Below, one piece after another: positions 1,142 through 2,883 of a stretch of DNA of 64,000 bases. The notes below the pieces were generated by a model that ran no database searches, was not told the origin of the DNA, and saw only the letters and a list, made by a program, of their open reading frames with translations. The DNA comes from a virus (taxonomy: Duplodnaviria > Caudoviricetes), in the IMG/VR virus record IMGVR_UViG_3300023267_000001, positions 1-64,000 of that record, one strand, 5' to 3'. How positions within the stretch are numbered: the stretch's first letter is position 1; each line of letters opens with the position of its first letter. The translations under genes were made by a program, and so were the position numbers.

Positions 1142-1471
1142 CCTGCTGCCGGTCGTTAAAATTGGACGGGGATTTCACGATTCGTTCCAGCGCGTAAAGA
1201 GTGCGACTCAAACCGCATTTCTGTCTATCCCGAAATCAAGTTTGCGAGCCAGCCCGATTAGCGGAGTCCAGCCAGCAGATTCGCAACCGCTGTGCATCGG
1301 GCTTAACGATGCTCGCAATCACCGACGGAAATATTGCTTCTGCCTATGGCTGGTAAAATAAATAGGGCCGTGGCTTTCCATCCGACCCCTCGCTTACCCC
1401 GTTGTTCACACGGGGCGAAAATTGATTGATTGCGATGGCCTGTCTAGGTCGCCATTTATTCCCCCGCTGGG

Positions 1472-1530
1472 GCAACTCCACGCGACTCTTTCGAGTTTCT
1501 GCTTTCGCTTCGTCAGGCGTATTTAATTGC
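1472..1530 (-). ncRNA. candidate type I hammerhead ribozyme
   Basis: Minus strand reads GCAATT AAAT ACGC CTGACGA A GC GAAA GC A GAAA CTC GAAA GAG TC/ GCGT GG AGTTGC. It contains the CUGANGA core, GAAA, stem III ACTC/GAGT, a GUC cleavage triplet and a bulged stem I. Deviation: A/A at the base of a 2-bp stem II. Confidence 0.65.
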
Positions 1531-1628
1531 GGGGCCAGATGTCATTTTGCAACAGGCCTTGAATGACCAGCGCACTCAATCAACACCAAGAGAGTGCCAG
1601 ATGTGGCGCGGTGGTGTCAATTAGAATT

Positions 1629-1850: not shown

Positions 1851-2039
1851 TCAGAATTTCGCCGTAAGTTTTTTCATCCTGCTGACTTTTTTCTTCGGCG
1901 CATGGTTGGAGTGAATCGGATGCCGAAGGCACACATAGAAATCGGGGTTTATGTCGATGCCGCGCCGCCAGTTATACAACCGGCCCCGAATCAGGTCGCA
2001 CAGCGTCAGGCTGCATTGGTATGGTTTGTGTTTGAACAT
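1851..2039 (-). CDS. hypothetical protein
   Basis: 62-aa ORF between the HNH gene and the YTD gene, same strand. Confidence 0.35.
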   Translation of the reverse strand: MFKHKPYQCSLTLCDLIRGRLYNWRRGIDINPDFYVCLRHPIHSNHAPKKKVSRMKKLTAKF

Positions 2040-2883
2040 CGCCTAAATTTTTATTTTTTAGCTTCCGCCTGCTGGATTTGTGTTTGACTTGAAACCAACG
2101 CTCCATGGCTGAGTTTACGATTTTGAATCTATGGTTTGTTGAAATTCCGTCAATGCCTAATGTTTTTCTTTTGTGGCAGTTTGGGCACAAGCACTGGAGA
2201 TTTTCAAGATTATGAGAACCACCCCTTGAAAACGGCTCAATATGGTCTAGTTCAAAAAAATGCGGGATTTTGCTTTCAATGCGACACGACATGCAATGCC
2301 ACCCAAAGTTAAGCAGATTAAACCCAAACACCTTGTTAAGCAGAAAGATTCGACCAATCACCAAGCTGTTAACTTTGGCGTTGTGATTCTCCAGAAAGTA
2401 TCTGGCAAACACCCGCTCGCGCCTACCTTTGGAGTTTGTGGACTTGTCTCGCTTGTCCGATTTATAAATCTCATAAACTGCATCCCCGTATTCTTGCCGG
2501 ACTCGCTCAAGATAAGCCTTGTCCTCGCGGGACATTTTTCTTTTTTTAATCCTTGGCTGGGTTGCGTGAATTGGAGTTCCAAAAAGACCAACAGACCAAG
2601 AAACTTTCTGGCACAACTTGCAGTGTTTGCTGTGGCCTGATTTAGCCGAAACATTCAACCTAAACTCTGAAATTGGTTTTTTAATTTTGCACTTCTTACA
2701 GAAGCCGGTTGAGTCTGGATTGTTGAATTTTTTAAGAGCCAGCTCTCTTCTGGATTTATGTCTTCCGTTTACCGAAGCCTGAAAACAGGGCTTGCACCTT
2801 GCATAGGTTCCATCTCTGCCTTCTGGATTTTTATAGAACTCTTCAAGCGGCTTGAGAATCAAACAGGTGGTGCATTTCTTCAT
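1972..2883 (-). CDS. HNH endonuclease with two N-terminal CxxC..CxxC zinc-finger repeats
   Basis: KKCTTC..KPLEEF..RCKPC and FCKKC..KPISEF..HCKLC repeats; C-terminal ELDHIEPFSRGGSHNLENLQCLCPNCH. Confidence 0.9.
   Translation of the reverse strand: MKKCTTCLILKPLEEFYKNPEGRDGTYARCKPCFQASVNGRHKSRRELALKKFNNPDSTGFCKKCKIKKPISEFRLNVSAKSGHSKHCKLCQKVSWSVGLFGTPIHATQPRIKKRKMSREDKAYLERVRQEYGDAVYEIYKSDKRDKSTNSKGRRERVFARYFLENHNAKVNSLVIGRIFLLNKVFGFNLLNFGWHCMSCRIESKIPHFFELDHIEPFSRGGSHNLENLQCLCPNCHKRKTLGIDGISTNHRFKIVNSAMERWFQVKHKSSRRKLKNKNLGDVQTQTIPMQPDAVRPDSGPVV

Follow-up and report, generated by a model that had tools for sequence, protein, structure and literature searches.

The locus and its hammerhead motif

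The window is the whole stretch of DNA analysed here, 64,000 nucleotides from a virus of the Caudoviricetes (positions 1 to 64,000 of IMG/VR record IMGVR_UViG_3300023267_000001). All open reading frames from 2883 down to 55 lie on one strand, the minus strand, and this is also the strand of a structured RNA that we call the scaffold, into which a hammerhead motif is inserted (Table 1). A gene for an HNH endonuclease lies 400 nt upstream of the scaffold on the same strand. An HNH gene adjoins the scaffold also in Arthrobacter phage Constance and at locus L154. The window contains no tRNA genes, and its genome has a single copy of the scaffold. No relatives of the 107-residue protein encoded downstream were found in the search of related loci.

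A promoter-like site is present at 1653-1626, just upstream of the scaffold, in a scan that performs at chance level. Two strong hairpins follow the scaffold, and the region containing them (1425-1340) folds with an energy of -29 kcal/mol (z = -2.16). The hairpin at 1389-1355 was not flagged in a scan for consensus terminators; from its predicted fold, the second hairpin together with AUUUAUUUU is probably an intrinsic terminator that a simple consensus scan misses. The distance from the predicted cleavage site to the ATG at 1141 is about 340 nt, the two strong hairpins included. The last part of it, about 210 nt between the terminator-like hairpin and ATG 1141 (1142-1354, minus strand), is without a convincing open reading frame.

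Table 1. Features of the hammerhead, the scaffold and the adjoining sequence in the window, in minus-strand order.
Feature	Position	Strand	Remarks
303-aa ORF, HNH endonuclease domain and N-terminal Lar-like/endonuclease VII-like zinc region	1972-2883	-	
Closing helix, 5' strand, UUGAUUGAGUGCG	1571-1583	-	Pairs with 1434-1422 at 12 of 13 positions; in MFE fold
Helix Pa, 5' strand, GUCAUU	1562-1567	-	Pairs with 1546-1541
Helix P0, 5' strand, GGCCUGU, within Pa loop	1552-1558	-	Pairs with 1443-1437
Helix Pa, 3' strand, AAUGAC	1541-1546	-	Partner 1567-1562
Joiner AUCUGG	1535-1540	-	Invariant or nearly so in alignments; also served as search anchor
Helix b, 5' strand, CCCCGC, distal continuation of stem I	1529-1534	-	Pairs with 1467-1462
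Internal loop c, AAUUAAAU, between helix b and stem I	1521-1528	-	A/U-rich; length variable in family
Hammerhead stem I, 5' strand, ACGC	1517-1520	-	Partner 1483-1480
Hammerhead core C3-A9, CUGACGA, N7 = C	1510-1516	-	Direct reading
Stem II: A10.1, G-C and C-G pairs, GAAA loop, A11.1	1500-1509	-	Direct reading
Core G12 A13 A14	1497-1499	-	Direct reading; invariant in a family alignment
Stem III: A15.1-CUC, GAAA loop, GAG-U16.1	1485-1496	-	Direct reading
Predicted scissile bond, C17 (1484) / G1.1 (1483)	1483-1484	-	From hammerhead numbering
Stem I, 3' strand, GCGU	1480-1483	-	CGU is also the start of scaffold joiner CGYGGA
GGA joiner and helix f, 5' strand, GUUGCC	1471-1479	-	f is 1476-1471/1453-1448
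Helix b, 3' strand, GCGGGG, between the two f strands	1462-1467	-	Partner 1534-1529
A-rich joiner GAAUAAAU and helix f, 3' strand, GGCGAC	1448-1461	-	Joiner served as search anchor
CUAG joiner and helix P0, 3' strand, ACAGGCC	1437-1447	-	P0 pairing
Closing helix, 3' strand, CGCAAUCAAUCAA	1422-1434	-	Partner 1583-1571
Two strong hairpins, 1417-1396 and 1389-1364, the second followed by U-run AUUUAUUUU	1355-1417	-	From fold

The minus strand from 1520 to 1480 reads ACGC-CUGACGA-A-GC-GAAA-GC-A-GAAA-CUC-GAAA-GAG-U-C-GCGU in the window, and by direct reading every position of the hammerhead core is matched. The residues of the C3-G8 tertiary pair are C1516 and G1511, A1496 stands opposite U1485 as the A15.1-U16.1 pair, and the GUC triplet ends at 1484. 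A preliminary description of this DNA had already reported the motif, and its coordinates for the core, stems, GUC and tetraloops are as we read them. At 10.1/11.1, A1509 opposes A1500 in place of the G10.1-C11.1 pair. Since an active natural hammerhead mispaired here is documented (PMC3088659), we count A.A as a variant state that does not disqualify the motif. In the window, loop II is GAAA and the internal loop of stem I (1528-1521) is A/U-rich. In hammerheads a tertiary contact of loop II with stem I allows fast cleavage at physiological Mg2+; no covarying loop-loop pairing was seen on inspection of the family sequences.

The minimum free energy (MFE) fold of 1535-1465 recovers the three-way junction, with an ordinary energy (z = -1.04). 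A descriptor loose enough to accept the motif gives one match in the window, against 0.0067 per dinucleotide shuffle. This is suggestive, but such a match rate is unconvincing by itself across a scan of many thousands of windows, and the case for a hammerhead therefore rests on comparison.

Covariance models from Rfam 15 gave no match to any family anywhere in the window at the gathering score. The hammerhead models, which the preliminary description had proposed as a check, gave none on the 401 nt from 1300 to 1700 even at E <= 10. They also gave none at the gathering score in 14 homologous loci, and none at E <= 1 in nine further loci including that of Constance. The Constance copy is missed despite having a canonical G10.1-C11.1 stem II, and the absent match in the window consequently says little. 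It is concluded, from the members scanned, that the Rfam hammerhead models overlook the whole lineage. When the window and 23 related loci are taken together, only tRNA models match, plus a single match to the tmRNA model in L196, which does not overlap the scaffold. The scaffold RNA itself matches no Rfam 15 family at the gathering threshold in these 24 sequences.

A doubly pseudoknotted RNA around the ribozyme

The scaffold is an RNA of about 115 nt, which in the window spans 1583-1422 on the minus strand when the hammerhead and the closing helix are included. We assembled 136 distinct members, 102 with a hammerhead and 34 without. All four helices (Pa, P0, b and f) covary across these 136. 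Helix Pa is 96.8% paired, compared with 70% when its partners are shuffled; helix b is 99.8% paired, with all six pairs changed on both sides; and helix f is 98.4% paired. The shuffled-partner values for Pa, b and f are 70-76%. P0 has at least six contiguous pairs in 133 of the 136 members and is represented by 117 distinct sequences, and the closing helix reaches at least 9 bp in 41 of the 136.

The 5' strand of P0 falls in the loop of Pa, so that Pa and P0 cross to form a first pseudoknot. In the same way, the 3' strand of b falls between the two strands of f, so that b and f form a second. The joiners AUCUGG, CGYGGA, GAAUAAMUG and CUAG are conserved. In the scaffold helices G-U pairs exceed A-C by 30 to 3, which identifies the minus strand as the RNA strand. 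The MFE fold of the whole element from a single sequence is free of pseudoknots, and is thus uninformative for the scaffold.

The order of the helices fits neither of the known ribozyme folds considered (HDV-like and twister-like). The scaffold was also considered as a mimic of tRNA or its T-arm, as a relative of Y RNA and as a put-type antiterminator, with no support in anything tested. Neither the scaffold nor a hammerhead set in it was described in anything found by full-text literature searches.

In the 34 hammerhead-less members, helix b and CGYGGA are separated by 2-6 nt or by a simple hairpin, from which it follows that the ribozyme is an optional insert. These members retain CG[UC]GGA at the site of the stem I 3' strand, and the stem I 3' strand of the hammerhead is formed from the scaffold's own conserved CGY. 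Stem I thus joins this optional insert to the first loop of the 3' pseudoknot. The preliminary description had extended stem I beyond the internal loop by a further helix, GCAATT/AGTTGC. In the window, GCAAUU (1530-1525) is indeed complementary to AGUUGC (1477-1472), but it is fully paired only there (1 of 102 members), and over the family 46% of cells are paired. We reject the extension, because it is not conserved and because its bases belong in the family to helices b and f.

The scaffold is present, unannotated, in several cultured phages in GenBank. The window element itself gave no match to GenBank phages with megablast and blastn; the cultured phages were found with a hammerhead-less relative as query. 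In Microcystis phage Mwe-JY26 the scaffold lies inside a tRNA array, and in Mycobacterium phage Gaia it begins directly 3' of tRNA-Ser. It is carried by Arthrobacter phages Constance and Karkharias, and in Constance the copy has a hammerhead and is found close to the right end, next to a gene for an HNH endonuclease. The scaffold is also found in prophages of M. abscessus, and 15 prokaryote assemblies, whose labels cover at least nine phyla, contain copies bearing a hammerhead.

Some individual loci have further features. At L322 there are tandem hammerhead-bearing scaffolds about 90 nt apart (2582-2667 and 2754-2843, minus strand), with stem II sequences that differ. A hairpin repeat of about 20 nt (AATTCGCCCGATGGGCAACGA and a variant) occurs on both sides of the scaffold at L131 (4234-4484, minus strand), L136, L154 and L169, and a GCC-GAAA-GGC hairpin similar to the L131 repeat is found upstream of the scaffold in L058 and L196.

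A tRNA gene lies within 500 nt of 36 of the 136 members, in all 36 cases on the same strand, which also supports the assigned RNA strand. These comprise 17 of the 34 members without a hammerhead and 19 of the 102 with one. In about 16 of 60 loci the next large ORF on the same strand encodes a terminase large subunit, as identified with Pfam, and several unrelated terminase families are represented; an in-house HMM iteration under-counted these, giving 12 as against about 16. At one locus the downstream protein is a TROVE (Ro60-like) protein instead of a terminase. Clustering of the neighbouring ORFs by BLAST gave no protein family in more than 6 of 134 loci, and so no dedicated partner at that sensitivity. 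The hammerhead is present in 11 of the 12 copies linked to a terminase large subunit by the in-house HMM, compared with 19 of the 36 tRNA-adjacent copies, a comparison that is correlative and confounded both by relatedness and by differing search patterns. The higher frequency of the hammerhead in operon contexts hints at a role in the separation or stabilisation of transcripts.

Conservation of the hammerhead and the stem II variant

The exact 33-nt core of the hammerhead occurs also in a second viral contig. There, about 100 conserved bases form an island between unrelated flanks. The island lies within a tRNA array and has the same strand as the tRNAs. Homologues were sought in viral contigs using search patterns that freed first the stems, then stem II and then the entire core. 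Most were found via patterns that fix parts of the motif, and the core is sampled without bias only in the flank-anchored sample, whose anchors are scaffold sequences that lie beyond the ribozyme. This sample consists of 78 distinct inserts of hammerhead size, and 75 of them contain CUGANGA. The three exceptions are one with a 1-base insertion, one with CUGAUUA, and one with UUGAUAA, which is that of Mycobacterium phage Gaia. The Gaia core has U3 with A8 in place of C3-G8, a covariation that is known in natural hammerheads and was earlier found to be active in vitro (PMC3088659, section 8).

Position 17 was allowed to be any base in the 104 distinct ribozymes that were parsed, and is C in 78, A in 22, U in 4 and G in none. 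This bears out the scissile bond between 1484 and 1483 that had been put forward in the preliminary description. All four bases occur at N7 in the same 104 sequences, which include 49 distinct sequences of stem III, 77 of stem II and 43 of stem I.

A gap-poor alignment of 12 sequences is 95.1% paired and has 11 pairs changed on both sides, which was reached in none of 500 shuffles. A covariance model was built from this alignment and then used to align 100 distinct sequences. These are 95.4% paired, compared with at most 44% in controls with slid partners, and all three stems covary, stem II included. The number of compensatory cells is 336, against 80 expected from shuffles; the preliminary description had named an absence of covariation in homologues as evidence against a ribozyme. 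The pair A15.1-U16.1 is kept in 100 of the 100 sequences, and the stem I pair 1.1/2.1 is G-C in 52, C-G in 35 and A-U in 13. The stem III helix is 99% paired in the family alignment. The original assignment, to a type I hammerhead on the minus strand, is upheld by the invariant core, the covarying stems and the 30 to 3 excess of G-U over A-C. The motif stands above chance because it is conserved and covaries in more than 100 distinct homologues, and to judge from these alignments the copy at 1520-1480 is a full member of a real and conserved hammerhead lineage.

The pair at 10.1/11.1 is where the lineage varies: in the 78 flank-selected inserts it is G-C in 36 (46%), A.A in 29 (37%), U.U in 9 (12%) and something else in 4, and in the 100-sequence alignment it is non-standard in 54 of 93 scored cells. 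The exact 10-mer stem II, AGCGAAAGCA, recurs in 12 distinct scaffolds. A stem II of 2 bp is common in hammerheads, and 10.1/11.1 is their most conserved stem pair; a natural U.U mispair at this position exists and is active, U.U being the best-tolerated mispair (PMC3088659). The pipeline of that survey discarded matches mispaired at 10.1/11.1 unless they had been tested (PMC3088659), and for this reason mispaired variants were under-sampled. On these counts, the stem II of the window is a common state of the lineage that was under-sampled by earlier surveys, and not a defect of this copy. In minimal constructs the A.A mismatch is expected to cost activity. The 'variant core' of the preliminary description is therefore accurate as regards the A.A and the 2-bp stem II, but the catalytic core is canonical and the variant is a common state of the lineage (about 37%).

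The natural U10.1-U11.1 hammerheads of Perreault et al. (2011) likewise combine a canonical core with a short stem II that is mispaired at its base, and 9 of the 78 members of the lineage have the same U.U. The window is unlike them in having A.A, which is not given as a natural state in PMC3088659.

The identical A-GC-GAAA-GC-A stem II was also observed in type III hammerheads, at L142 (584-642, minus strand), L161, L163, L171 and L187. A Shine-Dalgarno sequence and ATG follow shortly after them, and their setting is unrelated to the scaffold. Other type I hammerheads with the same or a covarying short stem II were seen in three groups of loci (L155 and L185; L003-L006 and L176; L007). Their flanking structures are different and likewise pair across the ribozyme, and it may be that the arrangement of a hammerhead in a loop is not unique to the scaffold.

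Proposed cleavage and its possible role

Taking the comparisons together, it is likely that the sequence at 1520-1480 is a genuine type I hammerhead, carried as an optional module in a doubly pseudoknotted scaffold, rather than a free-standing signal for mRNA processing. The minus-strand RNA would fold such that helix b and stem I hold the three-way junction, and the 2'-OH of C1484 would attack the phosphate between 1484 and 1483 by the standard hammerhead chemistry, with G12 as the base and G8 as the acid. The 5' piece would be about 100 nt long, would end in a 2',3'-cyclic phosphate, and would contain Pa, the 5' strands of P0 and b, and the body of the hammerhead. The 3' piece, of about 62 nt, would have a 5'-OH, start with GCGUGGA (the NCGUGGA joiner), and contain f and the 3' strands of b and P0. 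Because helices b and P0 and the closing helix all span the cut, the pieces should stay together, giving a nicked, two-chain knotted RNA. We infer cleavage itself from the conservation of residues that matter only for catalysis. A cut that leaves both pieces base-paired has no obvious purpose, and this counts against the explanation that we prefer.

A possible but on balance doubtful reading, which we put forward tentatively, is that the hammerhead is a built-in maturation or control step of a new class of phage RNA. Cleavage would then depend on the knot having folded correctly, or on the binding of a partner or ligand, and the scaffold would be an undescribed class of functional RNA. The suggestion of coupling to knot folding comes from the use of the CGYGGA strand by stem I, which is stacked on helix b. 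If it is true, a single-chain precursor would become a knotted RNA of two chains, both beginning with the NCGUGG motif, and possible roles for the scaffold would be in transcription of late operons or tRNA operons, in RNA stability or in packaging. No evidence was found for a link to packaging.

The preliminary description had proposed that cleavage of a polycistronic minus-strand transcript leaves a 5'-OH on the mRNA for the genes at 55-1141. All the ORFs from 2883 to 55 do share the strand of the ribozyme, division of long transcripts into smaller mRNAs has been proposed for prophage hammerheads that flank genes (PMC3088659), and the higher frequency of the hammerhead upstream of terminase genes than beside tRNA genes (11/12 and 19/36) fits such a role. 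The proposal is nevertheless unsupported as stated. The cut lies inside the closed RNA 1583-1422, whose halves would be kept paired by b, P0 and the closing helix; cleavage would put a nick in this RNA and not just shorten the leader of an mRNA. The roughly 340 nt that lead to ATG 1141 include two strong hairpins, one of them with a U-run. Scaffolds with a hammerhead also occur among tRNA genes with no downstream ORF, and the promoter-like sequence at 1653-1626, found in a scan at chance level, suggests a separate small transcription unit. We therefore consider the mRNA-processing proposal unlikely.

If cleavage would release nothing, the pieces staying paired, then the three-way junction could be an architectural module of the scaffold that does not cleave at all. 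The frequency of non-standard pairs at 10.1/11.1 (54 of 93 scored cells), at what is the most conserved stem pair of hammerheads (PMC3088659), could be taken in the same sense. However, all the catalytic positions have been kept while the stems diverged completely. The absence of G from position 17 in 104 sequences is relevant only to cleavage, and C3-G8 has changed jointly to U3-A8 in Gaia. The scaffold needs no three-way junction at this site, since some members have a plain hairpin or a few nucleotides there instead. A module that does not cleave is on this evidence even more improbable than processing of mRNA. Finally, a chance resemblance in an intergenic region, which would be compatible with the single-sequence z of -1.04, the missing Rfam match and the expectation of about 0.007 loose look-alikes per window over many windows, has negligible probability given the compensatory changes in every helix among over 100 distinct homologues from unrelated phage contigs and the position of the core 33-mer in a conservation island with unrelated flanks, and on the strength of these comparisons we regard it as already refuted.

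The hammerhead that we propose at 1520-1480 shares with the type I hammerheads of bacteria, prophages and phages a three-way junction, an open stem I, CUGANGA, GAAA, A15.1-U16.1 and a position 17 other than G, as well as the 2-bp stem II, the phage setting and, in a relative, U3-A8 (Perreault et al., 2011; PMC3088659). It differs from them in that its lineage is missed by the Rfam 15 models and in the A.A of the window, more than half of the lineage being non-standard. It is also unlike the known type I hammerheads that flank genes, since the ribozyme is internal to a pseudoknotted RNA and its stem I is continued by a helix of that RNA.

The scaffold resembles the large or ornate RNAs GOLLD and ROOL, which phages carry beside tRNA genes, as well as the stable RNAs encoded in the T4 tRNA cluster and the packaging RNA of phi29. 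As with these, it is a discrete and highly structured phage non-coding RNA, often set in tRNA arrays (36 of 136, same strand) or near packaging genes (about 16 of 60). It has no match to any of them in Rfam, through which the comparison was made. It is much smaller than GOLLD or ROOL, and its architecture is that of two pairs of crossing helices with joiners AUCUGG, CGYGGA and GAAUAAMUG. What we describe is a known class of ribozyme in a new structural setting, and the scaffold is a more novel object than the hammerhead.

The hammerhead class is well known, and one more hammerhead alone would be routine. The phage lineage described here contains more than 100 distinct sequences that are invisible to the Rfam models, those of the cultured phages Constance and Gaia among them. 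In this lineage the most conserved stem pair of hammerheads, 10.1/11.1, is non-standard more often than it is standard, with frequent A.A, which was filtered out in earlier searches. The ribozyme sits as an optional insert in a conserved, doubly pseudoknotted RNA of about 115 nt, which occurs in widely differing phages, among tRNA genes or ahead of packaging genes. The existence of cultured hosts makes both cleavage and the function of the scaffold directly testable.
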